Source of the DNA: Marsupella aquatica
Lineage: Eukaryota; Plantae; Marchantiophyta
Reading direction: 5' to 3'
DNA length: 64,000 nucleotides
NCBI GenBank assembly: GCA_973895155.1
Contig: OZ316892.1
Location: 4,672,510 to 4,736,509, forward strand
Shown: positions 4,401 to 55,159 of the stretch, piece by piece
Layout: the number at the start of each line of letters is the position of its first letter
Position numbering within the stretch: position 1 is the first letter of the stretch
The notes under the pieces: generated by a model
What the model saw: only the letters and a program-made list of their open reading frames with translations
Told to the model about the DNA's origin: nothing
Databases searched by the model: none
Program-made: the position numbers and the translations under genes

Positions 4401-4953
4401 AGTGTACGGTCCAACTAGAGAAATTTATGTTGGTCCATATCGAAATCAAGAAAAGATAGATGCAGAGAAGGAGAATATGGAAGGTGATTTTTCGGATTTG
4501 GAAATCAACACATTTATTTCTGTGGCCGGAGAGAAGTCTGAATCATTTTGGGTGGCTAAAGTAGAAAAAATAGTTCTTTGCGATGAGGCTCACATCCCAA
4601 AGATTATCTCAGTTTTGTGGCATGCAGCAAAGAAAGGATCCGACCCTTGGAAAGGAAAATATCTGCCAGAAGTGTTGAGTTACGAGAAGAAAAAAAGTGG
4701 ACGAGGCAAGGGAACCTTGAAACCAGTTTGGTTTCATCAAGACCTTGATCTGTCTTCAACTACGGTCTTTGCATATAATTTTATGCTAACAAGGTCTGAT
4801 ACTCTTTACAAGAAAAAAATAGATCGTATTAAAATACGACTCTCAGAATTTCTCAAGGAGGAGAAAGACCAAGAAGGTGAAGGTAGCATAGTAAGAAATT
4901 ATCAACAAGAAACTTCAATGGAAGTTCCTCTCGAAATGAATGGTAGGAATTGA
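1493..4953 (+). pseudogene. Sola/DUF7869-type DDD transposase pseudogene (2 exons)
   Basis: ORFs 1448/2420 share one frame and 3196/3865 share another; a GT-AG intron 3069-3205 joins them in frame (EK|R RGEIM). Motifs CCQRHC, VCRKAF, CADC, IDGMDQ, LQLDNTSRENKN, VGHTHDQIDQMFS. In-frame stops at 2408-2410 (TAA) and 3838-3840 (TGA). TATA-like CTATAAAAG near 1388. Confidence 0.88.
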
Positions 4954-5631
4954 GATTTACCAATCTTAGCAATTTTGTCAAACAAGAGTATTTGCAATTT
5001 ATTATTATTTGAGTTGGTGGTAAACCATAAATGTTGTGAATGATGAATTCATGAATTCATGAATCATATTGAAAGAAGTTTGACATTTTGAGAATGTCCA
5101 TCGTGTGGGCAGTCTTGTTTGAGACATTCAAAAAATAAAATATCGACTAAAAGAGGTACCTTGTAGAATCTCATATATTTGGAAGCTTTTGATATATTCG
5201 TCATTCCCTTTGTGTGAATAATGGTTTTTCTTGGTAAATGAACCCTAGGATCCTACAAACTGCAAAATCCTTTGGAAATCTTGACCCTCTTTTAAAAACT
5301 TTACATAGTTGGGATGTCAATGAACTTTAGGGTGGTATTTCAAGGGTGAATGTGTTATTGAGCCGATTGAATGTGTGCAAGTAGTAAATTACAACATTGA
5401 AATATGTGGTATTTGATAATTAAATGTTTTCCACAACCAGTTTTGTGATTTTGAGTAGTCAAAATGATAGCCTATTTTGTGTTTTTTTGCAAGTTTTGAG
5501 TTTTGTCTAAAAAAAAGAGCTTGTTTTAGATGCAATTTTTGCCTTTTTCCATAATTTCAAGGTTTTTTATCATTAGTTCTTATACATTGGGCTTATTACC
5601 CATCCTTTAAGGCTTCGTGTTAGGTGTTCAA

Positions 5632-8600
5632 ATGTCCCGACAAGAACACAGATATACGGCCCCAACTTTGTTGTACAGGGCACTTACAGGAGGAGACGGG
5701 AATGATGACGTTGGAAGAAACGATTTGCAGGACCTGGATGTTGATGGGATTGGTCAGACGCTTCCCATGCAGTATGGTATCCACATAATGCCTCGAAGAA
5801 TACTGACCGTGGACGAAGCAATTTATCGACAGACTTGGAGATTACAATCAATGCTTGACGAGGCTAAAATGCCTCAGGCATTGCAGGATAGCATTTTGAA
5901 AATGCTATTCAGGAAGATTCAGATTCCCCCATCTACAAATTTGACACCTTCACCCGACCCTCCATCCGACATGGCAAATGTAGGACTGGGCGCACTCCTA
6001 AGGCACGCTGGTGTGACGTGGGACGGAGGACGCCATGGAATTGATGCATTGTCATCATTCAAGGGTTTGTGTGGCACGTTTGAGGCATATGGTATGCCAA
6101 AAATGCAGCGGTGGAGAATGTGTATTGGACAGAAGCCAAACTGGCATGCTCCCGTAGTCCTACCGCCGTCGCACCAAGATGACTACAATGTCCGAATTGG
6201 ATTGAAGTGCAGTTGTTCAATCGCAGGGACAAAGTGGCATCTAGCCAGGGATTGTTTGCGTTGTTCGGAACGTTGCCCATTGGATGGTTGCAGCACGGCT
6301 CACAAGGAGATGCTCCGGTTTGAATATTTCCCCATTGGTCCCCTGTTGCGGAAGTTATGTAGCAGTCGATCTGTTTGTCATGAGTTCCAGGCAATGTGGA
6401 GGGACAAAGATAAGTGGTTTAAGAAGGATTCCATGCCCAGACCTGTGTACAAGGAATGGTGGGACGGCTACCGTGCTTCCGAGCTATCCTACTTTTGGGA
6501 CACTGGCACACAGTTTGAGATTCCCGTGTTATGCCGAAACTGTTATGCTTGCTATTCAACAACACCAAATAAATGTCCTGAGTTGTTGGATACTGCCAAC
6601 TGGGATAATGTCAGTAAACAATACAACTTCCAATGCTCAGATTGCGGATCTCGAGTCACGGCCCCGAAACAATTTGCAAAGGTTAGTGATTTCTTCTTGC
6701 GTTACTGTTGTTGCGCACTTTTGTATGACCAGGGTATGGTCTGGGTATTTTTAGGGTATTTATGGGTTATGATAGAGTAACTTTTGTCTAACTAGTGTGA
6801 CCCACCGCATGCAGGGTGATCCCCGAAATATTGCACTCATGGCACACTGGATGGATTTCAGTCTGCCAAGACTGCCCACAAAAGCACCTAGACTGTAGAG
6901 GTCCAAGTTTTAAGCGCCGGGTCTCAAACCAAAATTCCACCTATCCCTGTTCTTTTTATCCCGCCATGTGATGACAACGACATAGGAAAAAAAAAGCTGA
7001 AATGCTTGGATGCTTTCTTAGAACCATTCATAAGAGAACTGGAGGAGTTGTTTGTGGATGGGATAGAGGTGGATTACAATTACCCTGTGGAATTATTGGC
7101 TGAAGAGGATAATGTACCGAATGACTCCAGGTGTGTGCTACGAGCACTGTTAGCAGTTTTCACTGGAGATCATCCCGCACAATGTAAATTTGGGGGCTGG
7201 AATGTTACAGGTTATTCCGCTTGTAGGAATTGTAAAATGAGCACTCGATGGATGAAGTGCAAGTTTGATCATCCTCGAAAGGAGACTGACCAATCACAAC
7301 CCCGAGGTTTTCTGGGAAGGGTTGTGTATGACAACAATAGGATGCAGATGAGATATCCACCACCTACACGGAAAATTGAAGAGGTGAGGGAGGCGGCCAG
7401 GAACATGACCAGGGCAGGAACAACTGCAGAGAGGATGAAGATAAGCAGGGAGTGCGGGATTTCAAACATGACCAGGGCTTGGCGATTACATGAGCTTACT
7501 AGATTTTGTTTGAGCAAGGATCTGGTGTATGATACAATGCATATCCTTGCCTTGTGCCTTTTCAAGAAATACTGCGAGCTTCTAGTTTCGAGTGTTCCCC
7601 GTCAACATCAAAAACAGTTTGAAGATGCTCTGGAGGAGGTTACTGCTAGGAAACCGAGAGGTTTTGATGGAAGGTGGCCTAAACAACCTTTTGAAAGATT
7701 GGGATACTTCAAGGCTGAAGAGTTCACGCGATTCATATTGTATTGTTTGCCTTATATCCTCCAACAGATGGACATTAGTGTCCACTCTGACCTTGGGACG
7801 CTTGGGATTCTTTTGGTAGAGATTGCACGCCTCTTTTATATCAGAAGTAGACAAGAGGGTTGGACTACAGCCACATTGAAAAAAGGCAGGTCTCTACTGG
7901 CTTCTTGGAGAGTTCGCTCAGAAGAGGCTTGGGGCCCAAATGGAGCAATTCTAGAGCATGTTGCTGGTGAGTCATTTTTTTTACACTTGCTACATGACCA
8001 TGATGACAGTGGGTATTCATTGTTGGTCGATCCATCATTGCACTGAGGTGATGTTCTAATCCCAATGTGTTTTGATCCCAATTTTTAGGGAGCGGAGAGA
8101 TATTTGATGGGATAGAACGACATGGCCCACACTATGTTTATTGGTGCTACCACTTCGAGAGGATGGTATCAGACTATGGACGCACCAGAACAAATCAGAA
8201 GGACCAGGAAGTCACTTATTCTCTTCATTTTGCACGACGCTTTTTCACAAAAATATCGTCATACATTTGGGAAGATGACGATGGACTTTTCCCTCATCAG
8301 AGGGCTTTGGAGAAAGTATACTTGCGGAGCATCGTAAGGAGCACAGGTGCAGAGTCACTGTACCACCATCTGAATGCCCACACTAGCACGAGAATTCGGT
8401 GCCAATAGTTTCAAGTCAAATTCTAGCGATGGAATTGTGGGATAGTATGATATCCTCTGTGGAGTCATATGGTTGCAAGCACATGTTGTTGAGCAAAGGG
8501 GTTGGCATAGGCTCAAACAGGAAGCTGACAAAGAAACTGGGGCTGTCCGCCAGGATGTCATTGAAGCAGCATTGGACAGATGTTGGAGTATTCAACATCA

Positions 8601-9454
8601 GTGAGGACCACGAAATTAGTGAATCTTGCACTCCATTGCGATCAGCTGTGTGGAGAGCTGAAGTGTACAGGCCTGGCGATCACGTTGTTGTACTGGTAGA
8701 TGGGAGTACAGATGCTTCACATCCTCAAAACTGGAAAGCAGTACTCCAAAAGATTTTCATGCATGAATTCGATGGCCACATGGACATATTCTTTGAGGCG
8801 GATTGGTACAAACAACAGTATACACAGGATCCTCGGCGAAATTTACTGTCTTGGGAACGAGATGAGTATTCCCTATTTACTCTTTTGGAACCAAAAGTAT
8901 ATCATGCACATGGCAACAACTGTAGGCCTATGTCAAGAATTCTACACAAGTTCTTCCCAATTTGAAGAGGCGGGAGGGAGGTTGTAGCCTTGGAGATTGG
9001 AGATACTTTAGTACGGAAACTCCCTACCACAATTGCAAACTGCCCTCCTTTCCCAGAGGTAGGGGACATAATGATTGCAATAGCGGACTCACTTTCCATC
9101 CCTGACATGTGTGTTGTAAGGGAAGTCCTCCTTCCCAGGCGCGATGCGGCAACGGAAATGCAAGCGGGGGATGTAGGAGTGGTCGGTGCTTCTGACGGGG
9201 AGGAGGAGGAGGAGGAGGAGGAGGGAGGGGATGACATGGTAGAATCGCACAATGCAAATGATAATGAGAAGGACCTCGGGAAGGTTGGTGTGAGCTGGTT
9301 GTCTGTACAGGGTTCTCGGTCAAGTTGCCCAATCTACAAGGCAGCGTCACAAATTGATGAACACATCACCTTTCAAAGATTAGTTGCGTTGAGGCTTGAT
9401 TTTCGTGCAATTGGACTTCACCATGGTATCCCTGTACGGTGGAATACCGTATAG
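5632..9454 (+). pseudogene. Divergent CACTA/CMC (Transposase_21-like) transposase pseudogene with C-terminal BAH-like domain
   Basis: Motifs YFPIGPLL, GDPRNIALMAHW-DGF (1-bp frameshift near 6850), FLEPFIRELEEL, VFTGDHPAQ, ACRNC, YDTMHILAL, GYFKAEEF, HGPHYVYWCYHFER, then YRPGDHVVV...WKAVLQKIF...FEADWY (BAH-like). GT-AG introns ~6682-6813 and ~7967-8088. Stops or frameshifts near 6888, 8400 and 8963. Confidence 0.82.
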
Positions 9455-10203
9455 TAATACCATGGAAAGTCCCAAGTACGACAAAAAGGAAGATACTATG
9501 GGATATGACAACACTTGAGAGGCGCCGTTTTGTCAATAACTGAATACTGACCAGGATGCAGACCGTAGGATGTGTGAGATGCAGGTCAGACGTGAGCCTG
9601 TGATGGTGACGCTATGGTGCTTCGCACGGGGTATGATCGGGGACGGCACGGGTCACGAATATCATTGGATTCTGGGTCGGACGTGACATAATGGATGGGT
9701 ATTACCAGGTTACTTGGGAACGTGATAAAATGTACGTTGGGGTAGTGAAAGGGCGGTGCCACCGATCGGAGACAGAATCTTTGTTGTGAGATCTACTACT
9801 AAAACTGCAGTGACTAAATGATGCATGCCACTGCGCACATGAACGCCCTATGAGGAATTCCTTATAAGCTTTGGGCAATGGTGCGAGCTCCTGAGCTCCA
9901 GTCTTTGATTGTGTAGGTTTCGTAGATCTTTGTGGCTGACAAGTCTGCCATTGGATAACACTTGGGGTGTTAGCGACGGAAGCAAGTATCGACGAGCGCG
10001 GGGTGACGTTGGAGGATTGGTGAAAGTATGGTTCGTTGACATGATCGTCCAGCACCGGTTGCATTGTTGATGCAGAGCGACGAGGATATCACAGATCGTA
10101 TGTACCCCTCTTTCACTCAACTCCTTTGGTTCTTAATTCCGCATGAAGTATATTGATCGATTGTTAGAATGGCGCAACTAAGGCCTGCTTTGTTTGTACA
10201 GTC

Positions 10204-11332
10204 ATGACGGAGACGATTTGGAAGTCATGCTCGGGGAGGGTAATACGGCATTATCTAGGGATGGCCCCTGCAGACCATAATTTAGCTAGAAAAGCTGGTT
10301 TGGTTCCATGTTTTGAACTCGACTGGCCCAGAGTTGCAATTCCTGCTGTAAAGGAGTTCGCAGTAGGGTATGATCAAGGTCAAAACTGTGTGTCATTCCG
10401 GGGTGCAACTCACACATTCAACAGAGAGGTATTGCGAGCTGCATTTGCTTTTCCGTCTGGAGAATGGGCCCGATTTAAACCTGGGTTGGTCCAAGGTCAA
10501 CTAAATTCCATGTTTTCTGCCAAGATGAAAGGCAACCCATACAGTCTAGACAAAATCACTGCGCCATATATGCAGTGGTGTGGGATAATCAGGGCGATTT
10601 CTGAATTGCTCTCAAGCAAGAGCAAACCCACTCAAGTCACCTCAAAAGACATGTGGGTATACTGGGCGTATTGGTGGGATACGATTAGGGTACGTGATCG
10701 TTTTAGAGGAGCTGAAACTCCCGTGGTGAAGCCCGATTGGGCACATTTGGTGTACGATAATCTGACGAGTGAGATCCTCAGGTTAAAGTCACACCTATCG
10801 AAGAATGGTGTCGTAGACAAACGACTTCCTTGCTACTGTGGCACTGCTATAACGCAGATTCTTGTACACTACGGGTATTCGTTGGAGGAGCTTATGGTCG
10901 AACAACACGAAGATGATCATGAGGAGGACGACAAGGAGAAAGGGGACAATGGCTCACAAGAGGACGAGGAAGGGGAGGCTGGCTCAAAAGAGGACAAGGA
11001 CGGGGACAGTGGCTCACAGGAGGACGAGGAAGGGGATGACGGATCACGAGAGGACGAGGAAGGAGAAGATGGCTCACGAGAGGACGAGGAAGGGGATGGT
11101 GCGTCTGACGGTGAGGGGCAGCCATCGGAGGTTGCGCCCCAATTCTCCAGGGATGAACAGAAATGTCCTCAGGGTGAGCACAAATCGCCGCCCTCTGTGC
11201 CAGAGTGCATGCGTGTTCTATCACAGCACATACGTGCGCTAGAGGTTGATCTTGCAGAAAAATCGGAATGCTACGAGAAGCAGTGGAGAATCATAAAAAA
11301 TTGGTCCTCGATTTGATGAAAGAAAACGACAG
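10204..11332 (+). pseudogene. 5' part of the SNF2-RING helicase gene that resumes at 24422 (split by the 11333-24417 insertion)
   Basis: 370-aa ORF with an acidic tandem repeat. After a 1-bp frameshift near 11265 it reads AVENHKKLVLDLMKEND and, with the insertion removed, continues RQRVRILELERQVG in frame with ORF 24444. Confidence 0.75.
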
Positions 11333-11473
11333 ATCAACCTATTCATTAAAAGTGTATTTTCTTTTGTTCACAAATGAGTCTTGAAATGTACACTTTCATG
11401 TCCCCAAATGTACACTTCAAGACACCCAAATGTACACTTTTGTGTCTCTAAATGTACACTTTATAGGCCAAAT
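11333..11473. repeat. Left TIR (11333-11358) plus subterminal AAATGTACACTT repeats
   Basis: TIR is the reverse complement of 24392-24417; four AAATGTACACTT copies between ~11385 and 11462. Confidence 0.9.
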
Positions 11474-11714
11474 CACATTAATATTATATTAATAAATAAT
11501 ACATATTATATTATTTAATAACTCACATAGAAATGGAGGATAAAAATTTATAAAGTTATTTCATCCCCATTTAAGGACCAGATATTCTGTGAACAAAATA
11601 ATATCATTCCAAATAGATTATAAAATATCTTTATACAATTATCTGCAAATTTACATTGAATACGAACATGTTTCTAGTACTATCCAAGGGGCTTAACACA
11701 AGTCAATTAAATAT

Positions 11715-12930
11715 CTAAACCAAGTGCTCCCTACAATGTGTATTTGAGCATGTGCCCCTGTCTCCTTTCCTATCTACCCTATTGTCACGGTTGCAACTCA
11801 CTTTATTTTCAGGGAGTTGAAATCTGGTGGTGTTGTTCCTAATGGCTATAATCTCCCGCAAAAAGTGTCTGGGATTTTCTCTATATGGACCTGAATAATC
11901 CTTTCCTAAAAATGATTTAGCAAGTGAGTTGACAAGTGCATTGTCAAGTTCCACCTCAGGACGTAAACTACATATACGGTGCTTTACATTCCAAGGGATC
12001 TCATTACTGTTGAGGTCCAACACACTATGTGTAAACTGTGACTTCCAAATTTTTGCTGCAAATCTCTTGCTAAGTTGATCATAAGTAATCTCATTTTTTG
12101 CCTTGTCTCTCTTCATGTGCAAAAGAGACCACTTTGGAGAGTTGAGAAGAAGATAGCATCGAATGTCACTTGCATGTGATAGTTTCTCAAGACATGGCCA
12201 AAGAATTGCTAGAAGAAAATTATCTCCACGATTGGCATGCGTGTAGGGCACTGGAAATAATCCGGTCATGTCTGGGTTGGCAAATGCCTTAAGGGGGGAG
12301 TCATCCACAAGGAGGGTGTTGGTTTCATCATATAGATTTCCAAATGCATTCCATACCACCTGAAAATCCTTCAGTAGCACATTTGCCTTTCCGTTTGTAA
12401 TGTCACGCCTTTGAATGCCTGTGTCAAAGGCTTCCACCTGTGTGAATACAAACTTAAGTTTCAACCGCTCCTCAACAGTGAACATCATGTTCAGCATTTT
12501 CACTGTTCGTTCTACCCCAGCACAAGTCCAAATTGCAACGTCAAATCTGTCAAAAACCAACTTTAGAAACTCATGGAGCCCTGGTCGTTCTGTATACATG
12601 CGACTAATACCATTTTTTCTATCCCAATGCACTCCACTTGAGGTGACAATATTCCTGGATGTGCCCTTGTTTTGGAATTCAATAGAATCCCAAAGTATTT
12701 TATTAAGGTCCAAAATCAGCAACTTCCGCTTGACGGGACCAGGTCTCGATTCTGCAAGTGCACCAAACACCATTCTCAGAGAAAAGACCAAAAGTGAACT
12801 TTGGATTAGGATTGTCTCAGTCCAAAAATACAACACAATGGCTGACAAAAACGAAAATTAACCTACATACCGTTTTTAGAAGCCTCACAATGTGTAGACG
12901 GATATGGAGACTTTAATTGGTGAGCCCATT
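11715..12930 (-). CDS. FCP1/NIF-family HAD phosphatase-like domain (probably terminal exons of the 18151-start gene)
   Basis: KLLILDLNKILWD (DxN variant of HAD motif I), RPGLHEFL...FDVAIWT, NTLLVDDSPLKAFANP. A 60-bp exon 12930-12871 (GTATGT donor) splices in phase to 12751-11715 and has no ATG of its own in frame. Confidence 0.8.
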
Positions 12931-12990
12931 CTGTGAGACCGAGAAGTATTTTAGATTGATATGAATAAATAGAAAGTCAAAGGCTGAATT

Positions 12991-15900
12991 TCATTCCAAA
13001 ATAAGAGATCCGTATTCATCAATAATCATGTCAGCACCAAGCTCCTGTTGGATTTCAAAATTGACATCTGAAGTACTTTGTTCTACCCAATAAGGAGAAG
13101 TCCAAACAGGAGTTATGAACCCCAATTCTCCCCTCTTATACTCCTCCTTATTGAGAATTGAAGGAGCAGCTTCCAATGATATTTCTTGGCCTCGATTTGG
13201 CCCACTTTTCCACACGTAACATCGTGCGTCGCGTTCCAATGACCTCCATCCAGTTGATCCAACTCTATTCCCTTTCTTTTTTGAGAACGGAAGGACAACA
13301 GGACTCCTCGAGTGTGAACGAACAAACACCAATTTGTCATCAGAAGCTGAAAAGAGTGTGTCAGGACAAGTTGAAGCACCTGCCTGGTTGTCAACAGCCG
13401 TTGATGCATTTCCTCCTGGATTGATGGGAATGTCAGGCAATCCGCCGGCTTCCCCACGAGTCAATTCGTTAGTTTCAGCTTCATTTGAATCTCCAAGCCT
13501 CGTTGCGCCTTCGTTGATCAGATTGGTTGAAGAAAGATGATCAAACATATCAACCCTTGCTCCTTCCAGTTGCTCCATCTGTCCTCCCGGCGTTGTTGGA
13601 TTGGGATCATCCTTGTCCAAGTTATCATCAACTTGAACTTCATGGGGCCCCGGAGGGATGTCATCTAAACCAGATGAACGGTTTGGTGCAAGTCCAATAT
13701 CATCATCTACATCGTAAGGCTCACCTTGACCAACACGGTCATCCAAATTTTTGACATATGCCTCGTCTGATGCCTCTACGCCTTTAGCCACTTTGTCAGC
13801 AACATCTTCAGACTCAGAACCGTCGGATTCAACAGCGACAGCTACAGCCGCAATAGTGGTAGCCCATTGTCGAGAATTTTCAGCAAGTGATTCACAATGG
13901 GCTTTAAGTGAGGGAACTCTCTCGCAAAGGTAGGAAGCAAAAGCTTCCACAAAATGCCTCTCGGACTGAGAGTCACAATAAACAAAGCATTCCCTATCGC
14001 AAAAAAATGATGTCTTCATGACTTGGCCACCGGAGAAAAAATCTAGAACCAAATCTCCCGGTTCTGATAAGGATTCAATAATCCTTCGGATCATCCGCGT
14101 GGGTTTGGCATGAGGATTAACCCATCCTCCGCGACTACCAACTGTCTCAAATCGAGGGGCCATATTCATAATCTTGACGGCCTCTTCCGGGTCCAAAACC
14201 ACTTTTAGGTCGTCGTTTTGTGTCCCCTCATCTGATTCCTTAGCTTTCCCCTTTCCCTTGTCGATCTTGCATACTTCATAATCAACATCCTTTGAAGTAT
14301 ACAAGAATTTTGGCTTTGGATAGTTGGGCTTGAAAACTTCATTCCAATTGACGTCTTCATCTCGAGAAATCCCTGCAAAGATAACTTCTTCAATCCCTCC
14401 ACCCCAACATGAGTCATGAGGGTGCGGTTGATCATCTCGTGAATAACTCCCATACTCAATGTGAATGGTCAAAGCTTTCTCTTGTCCCAATTTACGAAGG
14501 GCACCATGGACATTCAGTGCAAGTTGTCCAGGATGAACTGTTATCGTCACCACAATCGTGGGATTTTGTGGAAGCTCCACAATGTATTCAAAGAGAACAA
14601 GAATCTCTGCTTCAGTCCACTGTTTTTGTGGAAGCCGGCTAAAATCAACAATGGCAAGAGGGCAGGTCGGAGGAGCTTCTTGCAATGACTCTGGATCAAT
14701 GGTCTTCATGAGATTGTCGCTAAAAAATGTAACCCATGGTAGGGTCCGAGAACGTGATCCTCCGCCAAATCTCTGGCAGTATATATCATCTAGGCGGAAT
14801 ACCAATGCCGTCGGCAAGATTGCGCTCTCCCGCGTATGATTTGGCTTTAAAAGGTTGGCAAGATAGACCTCGCCAGCGGCTCTTCGACACCTGCTGAACT
14901 CTGAATCAATTGCTAGCGTAGGAAGAACTTCAACTACTTTCCCCCAATTAGTATTTGTCGGGAAATTCACCGCATCCTTGGTGCAATAGTAGTCTTCAAT
15001 AAGGGACTTGAGTTTCCGCACGATCTTCACATCTTTGGCCAACTCCTCTATAGATGGCATGTCTGATTTATTAGAGGCATCTTTCTTTAGCAATACCTTT
15101 CCTGACTTCACCCGCGTCAGTATTCTTGTGATGTCTCGTTGTGAGATCAACTCACCATCAAAACAACGAAACATGGCAACAGTAATTGCTTTTTCAGACT
15201 TCTCATTTCCTTCTACACCAGCTCCATCGGGAAGTTTCCCATCCAACCACAATTGGCATACCAAACTCCATAAATCAAAAAGAGCATTGTCGGCAAACAG
15301 TAACCAGTAGACATTACGACAATCTTTCCTTCCCATGGTCATTCTTGCAAGAGCCAACCAATCCTACAATTGCAAAGGAAAGTCTGTTAGTTCTCCATAA
15401 CTCAATTGTTTGAAAGCACTCAGGTGCGGACTGAGACCATCCCAGTCCAACACAGAAGTAGACAGTATCAGTGGAAATATTATATTGAATGTGCATGATT
15501 TAGTTTGGACTAGGACCATCCCAATCCAAAACAAAACTAGACGGTATCAGTGGAGAAATATTCTACTGAATGTGCATGAATCCATTTGGACTGGGACCAT
15601 CCCAGTCCAACACAAAACTAGACAATATCAGTGGAAATAGTCTATTGAATGTGCATGAATCCATTTGGACTGGGACCATCCCAGTCCAACACAAAACTAG
15701 ACGATATCAGTGGAAATATTCTACTGAATGTGAATGTATCCATTTGGACTCGGACCATCTCAATCCAAGGCAAACTTGAAGCTTTGTGGTCAAAGACTAC
15801 CATCTCAATTGTAATCACACATGGAGAGTCTACGGTATTGTGCCAATCAAGCAGTAACACTTCATACCTGAAATTTTTGATTGTCTTGAGCGTTTGTTTT

Positions 15901-18151
15901 GTTGTCCCCATGTTTTGGCCGGCTAGGTTTTCCACATTCCACAAATTGCCGCCTAGCATGAACGACTGTATCTTTGAAGCATGACTGAAACACCATCGTG
16001 CTATTGATAGCATTAGATCGCATTGAATGCTCAACTAATATTGATGATGGTGTTCGATGAGATAATATTCTTGACTTTCGAAATTCCAGCTTTTTTGCCA
16101 ATGCTGTTAGCTTGGCATCCTTGTTTGCCCATTCTCGAATCCATCTGGCTGCTCTGGCTGAATGTTGACCGCTAATGGCAAGGAATTGAACCTCCCCCTT
16201 TTTCACGGCTGCTACAAAGTCCCTCCTATCTGATTCCGTGTTGTCATATTGCATTAGGTTTCTATGTTTTGTAGTGTAAGGAATCAAGTCTGCTATGTGT
16301 GGTTCATGCCCCGGATTTCTTATCATGGAATTGGCCACCTCCTTTACATGGTCTGCATTCAACATTCTGTAACAGAGTCTTGCCGACGCAGGGAAAATAC
16401 TCTCTACGGGAATAGAAAATATCGAATTGATCCCAAACGTATAATATTGCTCCATTTGTTGTAGTACCTCATTACCTTCTAAGACCTTCTTCTCCTCAGG
16501 AGCGTCCAACTGCTCGTCCATATCTTGTGAATGCACTATCAGGTTTTCTGTAGTGTCATCCATGATGACACTGTCAATTTTCTGTTTCTTCTTTTGTCTT
16601 GGCCTCTTTTCACTTGCACTTGGCTTCTCAACCGGACGTTTCTTCTCAACTGGCTTCTCAACTTGGCTTCTCGTACTCGGCTTCTCAACTAGCTTCTGAA
16701 CTCGGCTTCTCGTACTCGGCTTCTCAACCAGCTTCTCAACTGGAAGTTTCTTTTCAACCGGAGGTTTCCTTTGGCTTTGTTTTTGTTTTCCCACTGCTCT
16801 TTGAGAGGTTGCTGCTGTAGTTCCCGCGGTCTCTGTTGTAGGTTCTGGAGCTTTCTCTGGCGCCTTCTCGGGCACAGGGTTTGTATTCACCGTTGGAAGG
16901 TTTCTCGTCTTTGACAAAGATTCTATCCATTGCTTTGCTTTGACTAAATCAAAGTTGGGATCAAATGCAACATCCTTATCAATTAAAACACCAGGCTCCT
17001 CTGACTCCAACGATAACAATCCAACTTTCTCAAGTAAATTGCTTAACGTCCAAGTAGTTGCAAAAGAGAAATTGCCTTGGTGCTTCATCATGTTGAGTTT
17101 CAAATATTGAAACCCATACATAATGTCTACTGGAAGCATACCAGTTACCCCGATGACCAACTTCTTTGTGTCATATGTCTTTGGAAAAAATCCCATTGAC
17201 AAAACGCTCAATTCACCACTTGCGTGCCATTCGACATTGAATTCTGAGGAGTATGCCTTTGACATAAGGTTAACTTTAACCCAGCATGACCTATCGTGCA
17301 TCTCCAGAATGACCGAATTCATCCCTCTCCCTCCAATGCCAACAGAGACCACAGGTCCGCAAACCAAAGTCAGGCTATCATTTGCTCTGCACTTTAAGGT
17401 CAAAACAGGTTCAATCGTGCTTGATGGCACTTCATTATTAAGCGGGGTTCTTGAGAACTCAAGCCCCCATCGGAAGCCTGGGGATCTCTCATCTAGTAAG
17501 AATCCGTCCCGGCAGTCGGTCGGTGCAATCGCGGGTTTGAAACCAACAAGATCGCTCCCTGCATCATAAAAACATCATCCATGTTAGACTTATTAAGTTT
17601 AAAACATTTGAATAACTCTTGTTGGATTAGGATGGTCCTAGTCCAACTTGAGATGGTTTTAGTCTTGCTCCTACAATCGAGATTCAATCTCCTGGATGGA
17701 TTAGGATCATCCGAGTCCAAGTTTGGATTGGGATCATCCGAGTCCACGTTTGAATTAGGATCATCTGAGTCCAAGTTCGGATTGGGATGGTCCGAGTCCA
17801 ACTTTGGATTGGGATCATCCGAGTCCAACTTTGGACTGGGATCATCCGAGTCCAACTTTGGATTGGGATCATCCGAGTCCATGTTTGGATTAGGATCATC
17901 TGAGTCCAAGTTCGGATTGGGATGGTCCGAGTCCAAGTTTGGATTGGGATCATCCGAGTCCAACTTTGGACTCGGATGGTCCCAGTCCTCTAAGACTTAG
18001 GGAGGATAGGTGATGGATACTTACTAGGGATTCTTGATTGAAATTGTTTGGAGTCTTCAAGTGCCAGTTCTACACTGTCGCTCATAGAGGAGAGGTCAAA
18101 CTCCTCTGTTGCTTCCACGGAGGACTTCACAAGGACGCGATTCGCTTCCAT
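12991..18151 (-). CDS. Transposon cargo protein: ParB/Srx-like domain plus DNA N6-adenine/N4-cytosine methyltransferase-like domain
   Basis: Predicted exons 18151-18025, 17558-15868 and 15363-12991, all GT-AG, phase-compatible and stop-free (~1396 aa). ParB-like: IPVESI...RMLNADHVKEVANSM...FLAISGQHS. MTase-like: NPHAKPTRMIRRIIESLSEPGDLVLDFFSGG (14119-14024), resembling HPTQKP...GDLVLDPFxGSG of beta-class amino-MTases. The DPPY-type motif is degenerate. Confidence 0.78.
15428..15770. repeat. ~78-bp tandem repeat inside intron 2 of the ParB-MTase gene
   Basis: 4-5 copies of TTTGGACTGGGACCATCCCAGTCCAACACAAAACTAGAC...ATCAGTGGAAATA...GAATGTGCATGAA; the core is the reverse complement of the 27-bp unit at 17690 and 19210. 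Confidence 0.9.
17690..17990. repeat. 27-bp tandem repeat inside intron 1 of the ParB-MTase gene
   Basis: About 10 copies of TTGGATTGGGATCATCCGAGTCCAAGT / TTGGATTGGGATGGTCCGAGTCCAACT. Confidence 0.95.
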
Positions 18152-18660
18152 CTTTCTGACACGTGGCAGAGTGACACGTGGCTTCTTAGCAGGCGTCCGA
18201 TTTAGGGCAATGAAAAAGAATGGAGGTGGAGGCGGAAGGCAGAGGCGGGGAGGCGGAGAGAGAGCGGAGAGCAAAGAGCGAGGAGAGCGAGCGAGTGAAG
18301 GCAAAGAGCAGAGAGCGGAGGCGGAGAGTGGAGAGCGTGAGCAGAGTGAGGAGCGAAAGAGTGAGAATGAGAATGAGGTCCTGGCTGGACCTCTCCGTCC
18401 CTTTACCCCCTCCTGCCTCACCCCGGCCTGCGTACGGCCGGTTGCCTCCTTCTCCTACGTACGGCCTGATAGTGCGTACGGCTTGCTCCTGCGTACGGCC
18501 CGTTGCCCGCACCCTACATACGGGCCTCCTTCCTTGATGTCCTGCCTACCTAACAGCCTTGCACGGTAGTCCCCGCGCAATTAGGCTCGTGAAGATAAGG
18601 TGTGCCGCAAGCTAAGGTGAAGGGGTACTCAACCCTTATCTTCACGCGATTTCCGTTTGA
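18152..18660. promoter_or_regulatory. Putative bidirectional promoter region between the cargo gene and the transposase
   Basis: GC-rich stretch between divergent genes, with a GA-rich tract, repeated CGTACGG motifs (18430-18525) and a 13-bp inverted repeat CGTGAAGATAAGG/CCTTATCTTCACG (18588-18600, 18634-18646). Function inferred from position. Confidence 0.45.
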
Positions 18661-19209
18661 GCCGACTCGAGCAAAGGGTATATTTCGGGAGACGCCCACT
18701 TCGGAGCTCATTCTTGTTCTAGTTTCCCAAATCTAAGCTCCATGTAATCCGGAGTTTCTCTTAAAGTGTTATGTATTGAGCCACTTACCTTCAATGGGTC
18801 AGCTTAGCCAGCTTCTTGACTTTTGGGGTCCTCTCAGTTTATCTTTTACAGACATGTGTGGTTTAGGGTTCAGTTTGTTTTTTACTCCCAAGATTTAGTG
18901 GCATATAGCTTGTATTTCAGGGTTCTGGGAAAGTTTTTACCAATCTACAGACAACAATGTATCCCCCTTGGATGTGATATTCATATTCTACCAGATCTTA
19001 ATACTAAGGTGAGTATAAGGTTAACACATTCAAATATAAGGCTAGGTTTCATTATTTCATGAAACTGTATGTAGACATTAGGGTCTACCTTAAGACCACG
19101 CAAACTTTAGGCTACACCATATAGGGAGATCCGTAAAATACGGAGTCTTCCTAAATTTGGAATTTTCTTAGCTTAAAATGTTTGAAGTTTATCTCCCGTT
19201 ACATTATGG

Positions 19210-19980
19210 GTTGGTCTAGGATGGTCCTAGTCCAAGTTTGGATTCAGATGTGGACTAGGATCATCCGAGTCCAACTTTGCATTGGGATCATCCGAGTCCA
19301 ACTTTGGATTGGGATGGTCCGAGTCCAAGTTTAAACTTGGATGGTCCAAGTCCTAGTTTGGATTGGGATGGTCCGAGTCCAAGTTTGGACTTGGATGGTC
19401 CAAGTCCTAGTTTGGATTGGGATGGTCCGAGTCCAAGTTTGGATTAGGATGGTTCAAGTCCAACTTTGGATTGGGATGGTCCGAGTCCAAGTTTGGACTT
19501 GGATGGTCCAAGTCCTAGTTTGGATTGGGATGGTCCGAGTCCAACTTTGGATTAGGATGGTCCGAGTCCAACTTTGGATTGGGATGGTCCGAGTCCAAGT
19601 TTGGACTTGGATGGTCCGAGTCCAAGTTTGGATTGGGATGGTCCGAGTCCAAGTTTGGATTGGGATGGTCCCAGTCCAAATCCAGAATCGGAGGATCGTA
19701 CTCCAAATCTAGACTCGGAGGATTCCAGTCCAAATCCGGACTCGGATGGTCCCAATCCAAATCCATAATCGGAGGATCGTAGTCCAAATCTAGACTCAGA
19801 GGATTGCAGTCCAAATCCGGACTTGGATGGTCCCGGTCAAAATCCGGACTCGGATGGTCCTAGTCCAAATCCAGAATCAGAGGATCGTAGTCCAAATCCG
19901 GACTTGGATGGTCCCGGTCCAAATCCGGAATTGAAGGATCGTAGTCCAAATCCAGACTTTGAGGATCGCAGTCTGAATCA
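19210..19980. repeat. Tandem array of the same 27-bp family (21/27-bp variants) upstream of the transposase, probably in a 5' UTR intron
   Basis: Many copies of TTGGATTGGGATGGTCCGAGTCCAAGT grading into GGAGGATCGTAGTCCAAATCCGGAC variants; splice acceptor TTTTCAGTGTGCAG ending at 20025. Confidence 0.93.
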
Positions 19981-20040
19981 AAATTTGCATGACTTTGGTT
20001 GTAATCCATTTTTTTCAGTGTGCAGGATAATAGGAAAAGG

Positions 20041-23000
20041 ATGTCTCAAAGGTTTTCTAGGGGCGATGATGTGACCTTGACAATGGATGGTTACGACGTT
20101 GGAAATGGGACAGTTCAAAAGACAGATCCGCAAGAGAGTGTTCAAAATATTGTGCTGGGAGAGAATCGAATTGGGGTTCTCATTGAGAAGGCCTTTGGTG
20201 AGACCAGGAAGCTCCCTTTTCCAATGCCTAGGGCGGAAAATCTTCATGATGCCATTGACTCATGTGTCATTTGGGATATGTCATGTGCATATCGATCTGC
20301 GGATAAGATTACTCAAAAACGCATCAGTATTGGTAGTTGTTCGACTCGAAAAGATAACAACATCCATAATTCTGCAAATGTACAGGAGGATGCTTCGACC
20401 ACCCTAAGGCCAGGTGATGAGGTTGAAATGTTTATCTCTGGCCATTGTGTGGCCTTTGGAGTTGTTTTCAACACTGATCCAATGGAGAGATGTCATAACA
20501 TATTACTCGGTGAGTCTCGGGTTAGTGTAAAAATCACAGATGTGATTCATGGTAGTAAGACTTTACCTTACGCACATGGTGGAGCTGCAACAATTGAAGA
20601 GGCAAAGGGCTCCTGGGTTCTATGGGATGTGGCTGACGTCCACAATAAAGTATGGAATGTTGATATCGATGGGAGCAACAAATCTTCCTCTAAGAAGCAG
20701 AAGGACAAGGCGGATTTTGTTTCACAGTCTTGTTCGGCAAACACCACAGACACTAAGTGTGACTATTTTCATCGGGCAAACTGGATGTCAGAGTTGGTTG
20801 AACTCTACACTGGTTTGGATCGAACCAAAATGGTTGCCACGGGAACGATCACTGTCCCTCAAGTGATGGCGGCAGTTGATGATGAAATTCTTGGTGATGA
20901 CCATGTTGGGATTGCTGTGAAAGATGTCGTGGCAGCACAATACTTTCCCAACATCCACAAGGGAGTAGTGAGTTTGATTCGATGGCGGATTGATTCAACA
21001 AAACTAGTTGCAAATGGAAAATTTTTGTCAGATATTTTGGTGGAAGGTTCTGAAAGGATGGACTCAATGGATAGGGATGAACTCAATGCGGATGTAAGTG
21101 ATAGAGGAGTACTGCGTTCAAGGCCCTACAATTTTAACAAGAGGAATCAAGTAGATCCAAATGAAAAGAAGAGGAGGTTGTTGGAAACCAAGGCAATTTC
21201 AAAAACAACAGAGGCGTCAATTGATGACGTGAAAAGAGAAAATTGTTGCAAGCAAAAATGTTGTCTCATTATGCCAAGGGAAAACATCGAAGATATTAGG
21301 ATGGAATTTCATGGGATGTCAAGCGAGTCAAAAACGTCACACATTTTCAACCTCTTTCACTATAGAGAGGATGATGTTCGTGATAAGGGACACCATGTTC
21401 TTAAGGGTATGGTCGTATGCAGACATGCATTTGCAATTATCCACGGTTTTAGCCACACCAAATATTATGATTACAAAAGGAGATATGTGGAGGGTTGCAA
21501 AATTGGGTTCCATGGCAATACGGGCTTGATGAAAACAAGGGCAAATACCTTGCATGCACGAGCTCTGTTGGAGGCTTTTTTGACTCGAAATGCAGAGCCC
21601 ATGCCTCATATGCCTTATGGAGGGGCACATGGGACAGACTCTATTGAGTACCGTCTTCCGGCGTGTTACAAAAAGCTAGAGATTCTGGAAGATGTGAGAA
21701 CAAAGATGAAGGAAGAAGGGCTTCCTCCTGTCACAGAGAATACTCTCTACAAGATCTGGAGTAACTCATTTGCAAACTTCAGTTTTCATAAAGATGGTGC
21801 ATTTGCCAAGTGTACTCTTTGTTGTGAATACAAAGACAGTTTGATGCGAGAAAGAAGGAAAAAAGAACGTGCTGAAATTGAAGAAAAACGAGCGCAACAT
21901 CTTCGTGAGCAAATGTCACGTAGATATGTTTACTACGCTCATCGAGTGATGGCCAAACAACACCCAGGAGAATATCTTTGCATTATTCACGACAAGATGG
22001 ATCAAGCAAAGACATGGATTCCAAAAATGGTTAGTACTCCTAAATCTCTTTCGGGTCATGGAATGCCGCTACCTATTGCTCTCACAGGGATGTTGACCCA
22101 CGGGAGGGATCCAGGAGTTTATGCACACTTTAGTGTCACTGGCCTTTGGCCAGGAGATGCCGATTTCACGGTGACATCCTTGGCTAAGTGTCTTCGAGAC
22201 CTTGAAGAGTACAATGGAGACAAGACAGGTGACATGTTGGATGGCCTTCATTGGGAACCTCATAGACCTTTCTTTCAAGCCCTACTTGACTTTGAAGCAT
22301 TTTTGACGGGTTATTTGGAACCAAAGAATATACCGGTGAATAGGTATATTGGTTCTGAAGATGGAGCTGAGAGTCGGACTGAGACCGTCCCAAACCAGCA
22401 AGATGAGGATGATGGAGAAGACATGCAAGGAGAGCAAGGCAGTCCATCGTTCAAGCCCTTGCCAAGGCACCTAACATTGCAGATGGATAATTCAGCAAAG
22501 GACAACAAAAACCAGACTGTCATGGCATTTTGTAGCGAGCTTGTGAGTAGAGGAGTATTTGAAACTGTTCAAATGTCTTTTCTAATGGTTGGTCATACGC
22601 ATGAAGATGTTGATGCACTCTTTTCAAAGGTATCATATCAAGTTCAGCACAAAGAAGTTGCAACCCTCCTTGCTCTTATGGCAGAGGTATGGGAATGCGA
22701 GAGCATTCATCCAGTTCCCAGATTGATACAAGAAGTTGCATCTTACAAAGAATATCTTCAAACTTTCAAGGTGAAAGATATTCAAGGTCACTCAAAACCT
22801 GTATCATTTCTTTTCTCTATGAGAGATAATGTACCAATATTTCAGTATAAGTCCCATGTAAAGCAAGCTTGGGCTCCACTTGGTGGAAGGTGCATTTGGG
22901 CAACAGATCTGACAACAAATTCTCTTCTTTTACCAAGTGGAGAGCCCTTAGCTAAATCCATTGGAGAGATACACAAAAAATCTGAAGAGATTATCCCATT

Positions 23001-23802
23001 TCTTAACAAGTACCTTGATTTTTTGAGAAGGAGTTGCACTGATGAGACATCTATAGCATATAAGGAAAGATTTCCTCTTGTGAAATATTGGGAGAGAATT
23101 GTGGAGTTGTTGACAAATGGGCTCGCACTAGAAGGGGAGGGAAGTACTCAATTTCCCTTGGAAAACAGATTTTGGCCTAAGACTAACCACGGCACTGGTT
23201 ACAAGGTCAACCAACCGGAACAAAGTGGTCCTCCAAGTGAAGATGAGGAGAATGCAGAGATGACGGCTCTTCAAAATGAGGTCTTGGAAGAGATGGAAGA
23301 TCAGGCAGCACCATTTGTTGGATCTCGAGCTGAGAGAGAACAAGGACGATGGATTCCTTTACAAGATATTTGTGAAGGAAACTTTGTATTTCTTCGACCC
23401 GAGGATGACTGGGAGAATAAAAATGGTGGAGGTCATTTCTGGTTGGTGAGAGCTTTGGGTTTGGTGGACCCAAAGCATGAAGTCCCAACTACATCTTCAA
23501 CAAACCCTTCTCTGCCTCGACAGTACGCTCCAATGTTCCCAGTTGAATGGTGGAGGCCTAAACACTCTAGTAAACTTGATGTGACTGAGAGTGCGCGGTA
23601 TCTAAATTGTTTCATGTCCACTAAGACATGGGAACGAGATCCAGGGTTTGGTGAGAATACTCAACATTGGCAGTATGCAAATTCTGCAATGTATGGTTTT
23701 AAATCTGGAATGAAAGAAGAAAACATGGCAGGCAGAGGTTTGAAGATCCCTCGAAATGTTCTACAAACTGTCCAAAATTATCTTCAAAGGATGGACAAGT
23801 AG
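20041..23802 (+). CDS. Intact Sola/DUF7869-type DDD transposase with three N-terminal repeated domains
   Basis: Uninterrupted ~1253-aa ORF. CCKQKCC, VCRHAF, CTLC..H, IIHDKMDQ, LQMDNSAKDNKN and VGHTHEDVDALFS match the motifs of the pseudogene at 1493-4953. N-terminal repeats (G.V..DP....LGE...V......LP......A....V.W) resemble the En/Spm TnpA-type (DUF8039-like) domain. Confidence 0.92.
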   Translation: MSQRFSRGDDVTLTMDGYDVGNGTVQKTDPQESVQNIVLGENRIGVLIEKAFGETRKLPFPMPRAENLHDAIDSCVIWDMSCAYRSADKITQKRISIGSCSTRKDNNIHNSANVQEDASTTLRPGDEVEMFISGHCVAFGVVFNTDPMERCHNILLGESRVSVKITDVIHGSKTLPYAHGGAATIEEAKGSWVLWDVADVHNKVWNVDIDGSNKSSSKKQKDKADFVSQSCSANTTDTKCDYFHRANWMSELVELYTGLDRTKMVATGTITVPQVMAAVDDEILGDDHVGIAVKDVVAAQYFPNIHKGVVSLIRWRIDSTKLVANGKFLSDILVEGSERMDSMDRDELNADVSDRGVLRSRPYNFNKRNQVDPNEKKRRLLETKAISKTTEASIDDVKRENCCKQKCCLIMPRENIEDIRMEFHGMSSESKTSHIFNLFHYREDDVRDKGHHVLKGMVVCRHAFAIIHGFSHTKYYDYKRRYVEGCKIGFHGNTGLMKTRANTLHARALLEAFLTRNAEPMPHMPYGGAHGTDSIEYRLPACYKKLEILEDVRTKMKEEGLPPVTENTLYKIWSNSFANFSFHKDGAFAKCTLCCEYKDSLMRERRKKERAEIEEKRAQHLREQMSRRYVYYAHRVMAKQHPGEYLCIIHDKMDQAKTWIPKMVSTPKSLSGHGMPLPIALTGMLTHGRDPGVYAHFSVTGLWPGDADFTVTSLAKCLRDLEEYNGDKTGDMLDGLHWEPHRPFFQALLDFEAFLTGYLEPKNIPVNRYIGSEDGAESRTETVPNQQDEDDGEDMQGEQGSPSFKPLPRHLTLQMDNSAKDNKNQTVMAFCSELVSRGVFETVQMSFLMVGHTHEDVDALFSKVSYQVQHKEVATLLALMAEVWECESIHPVPRLIQEVASYKEYLQTFKVKDIQGHSKPVSFLFSMRDNVPIFQYKSHVKQAWAPLGGRCIWATDLTTNSLLLPSGEPLAKSIGEIHKKSEEIIPFLNKYLDFLRRSCTDETSIAYKERFPLVKYWERIVELLTNGLALEGEGSTQFPLENRFWPKTNHGTGYKVNQPEQSGPPSEDEENAEMTALQNEVLEEMEDQAAPFVGSRAEREQGRWIPLQDICEGNFVFLRPEDDWENKNGGGHFWLVRALGLVDPKHEVPTTSSTNPSLPRQYAPMFPVEWWRPKHSSKLDVTESARYLNCFMSTKTWERDPGFGENTQHWQYANSAMYGFKSGMKEENMAGRGLKIPRNVLQTVQNYLQRMDK

Positions 23803-24054
23803 ACTTAGTTGTTAGAAGCTATAATAATTAAATAGATAGTTACTAGTTTTTATGTAACTAAGATAGTCACTCATTCAAACATAGTAATTTATGTACTAGT
23901 TATTTACTATTCTAATAGTTTTAATGTGATACTATCTCCTCATTTTCTAAACTTTTGATCATTATAAATATGAATGTTTGCTTTTTCTACATAATTAAAA
24001 ATGTTTTTCTATTCATTCCTTTCTTTTAAATGATTATAATAAGAGTTGGTAGGC

Positions 24055-24417
24055 AAATGTACACTTTTTAGGCCAAATGTACACTTTATTGCACTAAAAG
24101 TTACACTTTCTAGACCAAATGCACTTAAATGTACACTTGTTAAGCCAAATGTATGCATTTTGCACTCAAATGTACACTTTCTAGGCCAAATGTACTCAAA
24201 TGTACACTTTTAAAGCCAAATGTATCTATTTTGATGTTCAAATTTACACTTTTCATTGCCCAAATGTACACTCTTTAGGCCAATTGTAAACTTTTCTATC
24301 CCCAAATGTACACTTTTCATTGGCCAAATGTACACTTTTCCAAGCCCAAAAGTACACTTTTCACTGCCCAAATGTACATAAATCAAATAATAATACACTT
24401 TTAATGAATAGGCTGAT
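24055..24417. repeat. Right subterminal CCAAATGTACACTTT array and right TIR (24392-24417)
   Basis: More than 10 copies of (CC)AAATGTACACTTT with ~21-bp spacing, ending in the TIR. Confidence 0.92.
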
Positions 24418-24421
24418 ACAG

Positions 24422-27400: not shown

Positions 27401-28060
27401 CAGAGAACAAGCCTTGAATGATTTCAAGACGACCCCAGAGGTACAACCGTCATTATCCGTGCAGATCGGTGTCTGTATTTGTTCAAAGGGTAAACTCTTC
27501 ATATTCTAATTAAACTGTTTCTACTCATTTCATGCAGATCAGCATTATCCTCTTGTCCTTGATGGCAACAAACACAGGACTCAACATCACTGAGGCTACA
27601 CATGTTCTTATGGTAGACGGGTGGTGGAATCCCACGGTAGAGGACCAGGCCGTCGATTGGTCACATCGTATAGGGCAAACAAGGCCGGTGAAAGTCGTCA
27701 GGTTTATCGCCAAAGATTTGATTGAGTTGAAGATTTTGGAGCTGCAGGTAAGATTAGAAGTGCTTGCGTGGACTGCAAGGTGAATAAAGTCACTCTGTGT
27801 ATGGGGTATTATTGGGGTATTTCAGTTCGCGTGCTTTGCCTAACAATTCCTGCACGCACTCACTAGTAATGATGAATTACAAATTCCATATATGTGGTCT
27901 CTAATTGTACGCATGTTGCATGTTTTGTTCAGAACAAAAAACGAGTGATGATCAGGGACATCATGTATGGCTGTGCAACCGGGAAAAAAGATAACATGGA
28001 ACAAAATCTGGAGTTCATTCTGGGAGAGAATCGGCAGCAGAGGTTCAATGCATCAGAGTA
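24422..28060 (+). pseudogene. SNF2-RING helicase (RAD5/RAD16/CHR27-28-like) pseudogene, 3' part
   Basis: Spliced exons give LYPHQRIGLAWM...GGMLADDQ|GMGKT, TLVVCPASV, VVTTYS, VVLDECH, LSGTPI*N (TAG at 26138), LLRLRQFAVHP, RING (CVDC..CGHVYC..C), KALVFSQWT, RIDG, GLNITEATHV, WWNPTVEDQAVD.SHRIGQ. Confidence 0.88.

Positions 28061-34532: not shown

Positions 34533-34535
<3 letters not shown>

Positions 34536-34569
<34 letters not shown>
34536..34569. repeat. (AT)17 microsatellite
   Basis: Directly visible; only a few AT units at the matching position of the other arm (~44320). Confidence 0.95.
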
Positions 34570-34574
<5 letters not shown>

Positions 34575-54816: not shown

Positions 54817-55159
54817 ATCAATCTATTCATTAAAAGTGAATTATTATTCAATTTGTGAACATTTCGGCAATAGAAAGTGTACATTTGGCTTTCAAAAAGT
54901 GTACATTTGGGCAAGAAATAGAGGTGATGGCCATCAAACATACCACCATGTTCATCTTTTATAACTGAACTAGGATGAGACTCCTTCTAGTAAAGATCAT
55001 TTTTTCTCCCTCAAATTTACAATTGACTATGTAGGTGTAGAGTATTGTACTATAGTGTACCTTTTGGGGTTAAAAAGTGTACATTTAGAGACCAAAAAGT
55101 GTACATTTCGAGGCCTAAAAGTGAACAAAATAAAATACACTTTTAATGAATAGGGTGAT
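54817..55159 (-). mobile_element. 343-bp MITE derived from the 11333-24417 family
   Basis: Ends ATCAATCTATTCATTAAAAGTG and CACTTTTAATGAATAGGGTGAT; 4-bp TSD CTAA (54813-54816, 55160-55163); internal AAGTGTACATTT repeats; reversed relative to the large element. Confidence 0.92.

Follow-up and report, generated by a model that had tools for sequence, protein, structure and literature searches.

How does a land plant come to carry a spliced gene that joins a ParB-like domain to a bacterial-type DNA methyltransferase fold, and what might the product of such a gene do? The question is raised by positions 12,991 to 18,151 of a 64,000-nucleotide stretch of DNA from the liverwort Marsupella aquatica (GenBank assembly GCA_973895155.1, contig OZ316892.1, positions 4,672,510 to 4,736,509 of the forward strand), hereafter the window, in whose coordinates all positions are given. 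A preliminary description, made from the letters alone, had seen a eukaryotic gene fusing a ParB/sulfiredoxin-like part to an N6A/N4C methyltransferase part that might be inactive. As we argue below, the gene is almost certainly the accessory gene of a DNA transposon, its methyltransferase-like domain appears to have lost the catalytic motif throughout the family, and its protein may bind palindromic sites that are amplified inside the element.

The gene lies within a cut-and-paste transposon of 13,085 bp that is mobile and varies in presence and absence among related sequences. Contigs from three of the four runs compared (X1, X2 and X4) connect position 11328 straight to 24418, and the flanks, when joined without the element, form one continuous open reading frame (ORF); the element has thus inserted into a gene of an older, larger repeat. 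Its parts, together with a short relative elsewhere in the window, are as follows.

11333..24417, unstranded: whole DNA transposon, delimited by terminal inverted repeats (TIRs), a target-site duplication (TSD), empty-site contigs and flanks that join as one ORF
11329..11332, plus strand: left TSD, ACAG
11333..11358, plus strand: left TIR, matching the right one at 25 of 26 letters
11384..11462, plus strand: left subterminal 22-bp repeats with core AAATGTACACTTT, common to the short relative listed last and likely transposase sites
11715..12857, minus strand: second cargo ORF with a NIF/FCP1-like phosphatase domain (Pfam NIF, E 1.8e-15), read stop to stop, first Met near 12773
20005..23802, plus strand: transposase-like ORF of 1265 residues stop to stop, first ATG at 20041 (Pfam DUF7869, E 2.9e-43)
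24054..24378, plus strand: right subterminal 22-bp repeats with the same core
24392..24417, minus strand: right TIR, 26 bp
24418..24421, plus strand: right TSD, ACAG
54817..55159, minus strand: non-autonomous relative of 343 bp, a miniature inverted-repeat transposable element (MITE), whose ends resemble those of the transposon and which is flanked by a separate 4-bp TSD, TTAG

The transposase-like ORF, on the strand opposite to the accessory gene and head-to-head with it, carries acidic motifs at 21985, 22477 and 22579 and found no match in a PDB search. We take DUF7869 to be a Sola-type transposase; the assignment is probable, and two features of the Sola superfamily, TIRs and a 4-bp TSD, are present in the element. 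The NIF/FCP1-like ORF lies 3' of the accessory gene. Active phosphatases of this type carry DxDx(T/V); here the motif reads DLNKIL, so that the element may hold a third enzyme domain that has degenerated. The order of accessory gene and NIF ORF looks old, since 3 of 30 relatives scanned, one of them from Riccia, unite the methyltransferase-like region and NIF in a single gene model (Pfam detects the methyltransferase part in two of these, the family profile in all three). Contigs sum to a greater depth within the element than on its flanks (333-2250 versus 198-248 in X1), a figure that is not to be read as copy number. Two other origins for the gene were considered and rejected: a host gene or an orthologue of Marchantia DN4MT1, given the location inside a TIR element and the absence of SPPY, and bacterial contamination, given the introns and the fact that all named relatives are plants. 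The spliced eukaryotic gene proposed earlier is, more precisely, a transposon accessory gene and not a domesticated host gene.

The gene model itself had been proposed as three phase-compatible exons of about 1396 residues, and so we find it: the joined exons give 4191 nt in phase, encoding 1396 residues and a stop with no internal stop codon, and both introns run GT...AG, with donors GTAAGT and GTATGA.

18025..18151, minus strand: exon 1, predicted, matched by no homologue
15868..17558, minus strand: exon 2, comprising an N-terminal conserved region, a basic low-complexity linker and the ParB-like domain
16909..17532, minus strand: conserved N-terminal region of about 200 residues, matching no known family
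15925..16452, minus strand: ParB/DndB/DUF3723-like domain, with YR at 16371 and SGQHS at 16173-16159
12991..15363, minus strand: exon 3, comprising a helical domain, the methyltransferase-like core, an acidic disordered linker and a conserved C-terminal domain
14752..15363, minus strand: all-helical domain of about 200 residues between the ParB-like and methyltransferase-like domains, with no clear fold match
13894..14751, minus strand: predicted beta-class amino-methyltransferase fold, from structural matches of the exon-3 model
14635..14646, minus strand: putative motif IV position, DFSR instead of DPPY/SPPY, at the end of core strand 2 in the model
14023..14046, minus strand: motif I, the predicted S-adenosylmethionine (SAM)-binding loop LDFFSGGQ
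12994..13362, minus strand: conserved C-terminal domain of about 110 residues ending in EYGS, from the relatives' alignment; no significant PDB or Pfam match

Intron 2 (junction 15868/15363) is supported by homologues. The junction is spanned by the Calypogeia fissa gene models P0002, P0011 and P0036 and by P0168, a single 1009-residue ORF on an ENA contig, and in four unspliced homologous ORFs (P0010, P0012, P0014 and P0016) similarity ends exactly there. Support for junction 18025/17558 is indirect: none of the 17 relatives aligned to the window matches exon 1, and an upstream exon is needed because similarity to homologues begins at about 17530-17480, 5' of the first in-frame methionine of exon 2 (17322). 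The exon frame goes beyond chance, since exon 3, used as a profile query, has 245 representative matches at E<=0.001 and Pfam N6_N4_Mtase passes its cut-off (28.1 bits versus 26.7, over 29 residues only); a chance ORF was rejected on the strength of those relatives. As a prediction from sequence, then, the accessory gene is confirmed as a real spliced gene. Immediately upstream, following a pyrimidine-rich stretch, two CCACGTGTC motifs, presumably G-box/ABRE-like, lie on the minus strand at 18157-18182, no more than 30 bases 5' of the predicted start codon.

How widely is this gene spread? The exon-3 matches considered here are 150 of the 245. Names are attached to 14 of the 26 clusters looked up (11 Riccia sorocarpa, 2 Calypogeia fissa, 1 Ceratopteris richardii), with no algal member among the 14, and three further Calypogeia models emerged from a search with the ParB region. 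The conserved cores are thus present in at least three named genera, covering two liverwort classes and one fern. In a quick tree of those 33 among 146 hits that cover at least 250 columns, a 16-row set with support 99 unites the window sequence with Calypogeia, which by itself would make a leafy liverwort the likely host, and Riccia members are spread over several deep clades; lacking a prokaryotic outgroup, the tree gives neither donor nor direction. The ParB-like region is found in 18 of 167 proteins, 11 of which also have exon-3 regions and 8 the methyltransferase core, some of the 8 holding just the tail of the ParB region. In P0168 all three parts are complete and in the same order as in the window gene. 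The fusion posited earlier is hence confirmed in relatives at the sequence level, in shorter proteins; among 129 candidates for long fused homologues none has the ParB region. A pattern scan for relatives returned none of 74 candidate stretches in viral contigs, none of 57 candidates in prokaryote genomes and one of 135 in metagenomes, this last on a 1.8-kb contig without context, and a tblastn search against phages gave just weak matches to motif I (best E 0.03) and none to the ParB region. Because no close prokaryotic or viral relative turned up, the donor cannot be named.

We can now ask whether the methyltransferase-like domain is likely to work as one. For exon-3 residues 1-500 an AlphaFold model was built from 7 sequences (predicted local distance difference test, pLDDT, 71), in which residues 205-490 resemble beta-class enzymes. 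Compared with CcrM (6pbd) it gives a VIA Z of 16.8, with a root-mean-square deviation of 3.4 over 197 aligned residues, model residues 206-489 lying on CcrM 3-258. Z is 16.6 for M.MboIIA, 15.4 for M.RsrI and 14.6 for rotifer N4CMT, versus 8.8-11.7 for MT-A70-type proteins and at most 5.7 for unrelated folds, and Foldseek returns 47 matches at E<=0.001 (M.MboIIA at E 2.1e-7). The model is a permuted Rossmann fold with motif IV ahead of motif I. The methyltransferase assignment, until now a reading of motifs, is borne out by this structural check: there is a strong case from the model that exon 3 has a beta-class N6A/N4C amino-methyltransferase fold. The motifs read off earlier also lie where they had been placed (ISGQHS at 16176-16159, LAIVDFSR at 14658-14635, VNPHAKP at 14121-14101 and LDFFSGGQ at 14046-14023).

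In CcrM, motif IV comes after strand 2 (PMC10406627), and strand 2 of our model ends at the D of DFSR, so that DFSR would occupy the motif IV position, a placement that rests on the model. The replacement of DPPY/SPPY by LAIVDFSR, noticed before in this one sequence, appears from the homologue alignment to be family-wide: none of 171 family proteins contains [DNS]PP[YFW], which is present in the phage control, and at the aligned site PP is found in 0 of 51 family segments and a fourth residue that is R, H or K in 46. Since the prolines and the aromatic residue of motif IV position the target base (PMC4738411), and since changing SPPY to APPA abolishes the activity of rotifer N4CMT (PMC8885841), we consider canonical amino-methylation unlikely, given the modelled placement.

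A different possibility is active but non-canonical amino-methylation, by which the protein would mark the element that encodes it with N4-methylcytosine (4mC) or N6-methyladenine (6mA) at or near particular sites, namely the palindromes described below, as has been proposed for algal proteins. The motif IV aspartate is kept in 47 of 51 segments and the D, G and G of motif I in 59, 61 and 59 of 64, 6 of 7 aligned sequences have an acidic residue after the next strand, the whole fold is retained across two liverwort classes, and Marchantia does have 4mC (bioRxiv 2021.02.12.428880). Against this, an aromatic fourth residue is seen in only 1 of 51 segments and PP in none, and the mechanism as set out in PMC4738411 requires both. 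Motif I, predicted to bind SAM and described previously as shortened, is indeed one residue shorter in DFFSGGQV than in M.RsrI, and it decays further in the most divergent members, for example to ELYCGGVV. We therefore judge activity of this kind unlikely.

The identity of the ParB-like domain is less secure than that of its partner. Pfam ParB gives no hit on the accessory gene, the match to DndB is weak and confined to one homologue (E 0.031), and a profile of the region against PDB returned low-complexity or non-significant rows only, with none of note in Pfam. For a model of the window region itself, Foldseek lists sulfiredoxin (E 3.1) and Noc (E 4.3) in non-significant rows only. Language-model features place the region nearest a basidiomycete cluster (0.96) and DUF3723 (0.95). 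An Atlas model of the homologue P0011 (63% identical, predicted template modelling score 0.67) has template modelling (TM) scores of 0.50-0.61 to clusters carrying ParB_N or DndB, and of 0.59 to DUF3723 (PF12520), a structural neighbour that may itself be a ParB-fold accessory protein; no paper treating DUF3723 and ParB together was found in the literature searched. At the P motif all 9 aligned sequences have GQHS, the arginine of GxxR being absent. Of the earlier ParB/sulfiredoxin-like fusion, then, the fusion stands and the ParB identity is weakened; we hold with moderate confidence, from these models, that the region is a ParB-fold-like domain without a defining feature of ParB CTPases.

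What might such a protein bind? Repeats in both introns and 5' of the accessory gene have in common an imperfect 25-bp palindrome, with consensus TTGGACTCGGAT-N-ATCCGAGTCCAA. A profile trained on 25 array units, themselves among the sites counted, detects 42 of them within the element, whereas the remaining 50,915 bases of the window and three shuffles yield none; tandem copies are not independent.

15426..15768, unstranded: five palindromes in 79-bp units, intron 2
17622..17990, unstranded: twelve palindromes (a 27-bp array and one apart), intron 1
19211..19922, unstranded: twenty-two palindromes in the interval that separates the accessory gene from the divergently oriented transposase
12801, 13596 and 22374: single palindromes

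The introns and the interval between the two divergent genes thus hold all but three (39 of 42), and the sites as a whole are arranged in 27-bp units, 79-bp units or as isolated copies. The element ends and the 343-bp MITE contain no palindrome and carry the different 22-bp repeat. Because the two kinds of site are kept apart in this way, the pattern suggests a division of labour in which the end repeats would serve the transposase and the internal palindromes the accessory protein.

CACTA and Harbinger elements encode second proteins that act as transposition cofactors, and the accessory protein might do the same by bridging or bending the element for the transposase, in keeping with its head-to-head position within one element and with the ability of ParB-type proteins to bridge and spread on DNA (PMC12704722). 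The palindromes, though, are internal, with none in the right-hand last 600 bp and the leftmost at 12801, and the MITE has moved, as its own TSD attests, without them. A cofactor role consequently strikes us as improbable.

Instead, we think it rather probable that the accessory protein, by way of its likely ParB-type domain and its methyltransferase fold, binds the palindromes of its own element, which are its candidate sites, and see about an even chance that it is a regulator of that element. It would dimerise as beta-class enzymes do, the dimer would recognise the two-fold symmetric 25-bp site, and the dead methyltransferase fold would be used as a DNA-binding, dimerising or SAM-sensing scaffold. 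Binding at the internal palindromes might then keep both divergent genes and their promoters active against host silencing. The least certain step, argued from analogy, is that the outcome would be anti-silencing of this kind rather than simple auto-regulation; we put it forward tentatively, at somewhat less than even odds. The analogy is with VANC of Arabidopsis VANDAL elements, whose targets form tandem repeats (PMC5735166): the likely logic is alike, in that the element encodes the protein and has multiplied the protein's target motifs internally as tandem repeats. Hypomethylation by VANC is demonstrated, whereas for the window element it would be deduced only, and kinship of sequence or fold to VANC is not expected.

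Closer in architecture is Sola1-1_Ec32 of the brown alga Ectocarpus, in which a gene for a 1104-residue protein, ParB-like plus N4C/N6A methyltransferase, runs on the other strand from the transposase and whose describers cite similar proteins in green and red algae (PMC12477816). Both are large TIR elements with a 4-bp TSD and a gene of more than 1000 residues opposite the transposase, and the algal accessory protein is proposed to bind and modify its own element (PMC12477816). The window gene has this algal accessory design, with ParB-like and methyltransferase-like domains in one gene, opposite a transposase and within a TIR element. The algal element differs in host, length (21.5 kb), TIR (282 bp) and termini (AACCG); its domain, compared by description, is a predicted 4mC/6mA producer, whereas here the catalytic motif is missing family-wide (PMC12477816). 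The NIF phosphatase-like gene of the window element also sets it apart. The transposon architecture as such is therefore already published for algae; new here are an intact and mobile land-plant version, the family-wide loss of the catalytic motif and the candidate binding sites. No description of a version from land plants or without the catalytic motif was found in the literature searched, subscription journals lying mostly outside it.

Other systems share parts of this design. In the red-algal Plavaka genes PAG2 and PAG3 a transposon-borne ParB-like domain lies beside tandem inverted-repeat arrays, PAG3 of Bostrychia directly adjoining them, and a PF01555 methylase occurs in the same element; there, however, different genes of EnSpm/Plavaka elements are involved, one joining ParB to a 2-oxoglutarate oxygenase and another joining the methylase to SET (bioRxiv 2025.02.11.637652). 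Fungal Starships conserve DUF3723, the neighbour of our ParB-like region in features and structure, as a gene of giant mobile elements, but these are tyrosine-recombinase elements and, as far as PMC9156397 describes them, no methyltransferase part is reported. Fusions of ParB and N6_N4_Mtase in phages and prophages have canonical GxxR and DPPY motifs. They too unite both folds in one mobile-element protein (PMC12704722; BFVD match A0A6J5MMM5), but have neither introns nor long linkers of acidic or basic character. Marchantia DN4MT1 and rotifer N4CMT, brought up earlier, share a bacterial-type beta-class fold in a eukaryote (for N4CMT the Z of 14.6 above). They are catalytically active enzymes of their hosts that keep TSPPY/SPPY and contain no ParB-like domain, where the window gene is transposon cargo with DFSR (bioRxiv 2021.02.12.428880; PMC8885841; PMC10406627), so that the algal transposon proteins replace them as the closest published parallels.

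Several observations weigh against the idea of a pseudo-enzyme that shields its element. The AlphaFold model of the window's own ParB region has a pLDDT of 42 and no Foldseek match at E<=0.001, and all family scores of the P0011 Atlas model fall under the naming bar. A CTP (cytidine triphosphate) clamp cannot be assumed because the P-motif arginine, required for nucleotide binding in the ParB-fold proteins tested in PMC12704722, is absent. Residue-level profile alignment to three phage methylases (hhalign) was confident for the motif X/I region only and left the motif IV position unfixed, and the conserved motif IV aspartate together with motif I would fit a retained ligand site or even unusual chemistry. 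Finally, the observed/expected ratio of CpG is 0.56 in the element versus 0.50-0.59 in its surroundings; since depletion is equal, the element has had no long-run escape from methylation.

A further scenario keeps the fold dead and gives it another use, as a METTL14-like partner of an active methyltransferase of the host or the element or as a decoy for SAM or a reader, aimed by the ParB-like part. Beta-class enzymes divide the labour between the subunits of a dimer (PMC10406627), the structural matches include METTL3-METTL14 and MTA1-complex chains, and DIRS1 elements hold inactive amino-methyltransferase domains (PMC4738411), but no second amino-methyltransferase gene was found among the 28 window ORFs scanned, and we consider this scenario very unlikely. 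The remaining scenario, a decaying passenger gene with neutral minisatellites, bears on whether the protein is maintained at all. Among copies of the element, 13 of 25 coding variants are synonymous versus 6.3 expected (p 0.004, transitions and transversions weighted), a sample that is to be read with reserve as the coding-exon share (25 of 80) of the best-supported 80 rows from two comparisons with about 900 rows each; in residues 400-1095 the figure is 7 of 8, and the exon indels listed preserve the frame. Slippage does generate tandem arrays, many Riccia relatives are partial gene models and both catalytic-type motifs are degenerate, but with a 1396-residue frame unbroken, synonymous variants in excess, cores conserved across the genera named and one palindrome recurring in two unit periods and at isolated sites up to 9.5 kb apart, decay is very improbable.

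Returning to the regulator proposed above, we may extend it into a broader and doubtful picture, argued by analogy: an old liverwort and fern cut-and-paste family would have built anti-silencing from prokaryotic parts, with a ParB-like plus pseudo-methyltransferase protein loading at amplified, parS-like palindromes and shielding the element from host DNA methylation, convergent with but unrelated to VANC, and the DUF3723 module may serve fungal Starships. Should the protein prove to lift or prevent silencing at a defined 25-bp site, a second anti-silencing system, independent of the first, would be known from transposons, and it might lend itself to epigenome targeting. A compact, intact element with an explicit candidate binding site makes a class of accessory protein proposed earlier from algae directly testable, and, its likely host being a liverwort, Marchantia offers a host for genetic tests. 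The family-wide loss of the catalytic motif argues for binding, not 4mC/6mA writing, at least in land plants, and such genes should not be tallied as 4mC/6mA writers when plant genomes are annotated.

The older, larger element that hosts the transposon takes up window positions 1-11332 and 24422 to about 27900, with subterminal-type repeats at 1-367. It contains another DUF7869 gene, broken into pieces (2411-4953), a gene resembling Transposase_21 (5611-9454), a SNF2/RING/helicase-C gene (25682-27500) and the ORF that the transposon interrupts (10168-11316 plus 24422-25355), in which other copies show one additional base at 11267. Further along, an inverted duplication (30417-36475 / 42405-45846, 74-95% identity in blocks) takes in part of a 369-residue ORF (32097-33206) and a duplicated 200-residue ORF (35215-35817 / 43027-43620). 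A KN-type homeobox ORF lies at 46162-47202, followed on the minus strand by an ORF at 48997-49650 without a Pfam hit, which we take to resemble a Ty1/copia RNase H remnant. At 57167-63998, ORFs with PHD, BRCT and weak F-box matches are immediately followed by a CACTA Transposase_21/DUF4218/DUF4216 gene; together they may belong to a further giant element rich in cargo.

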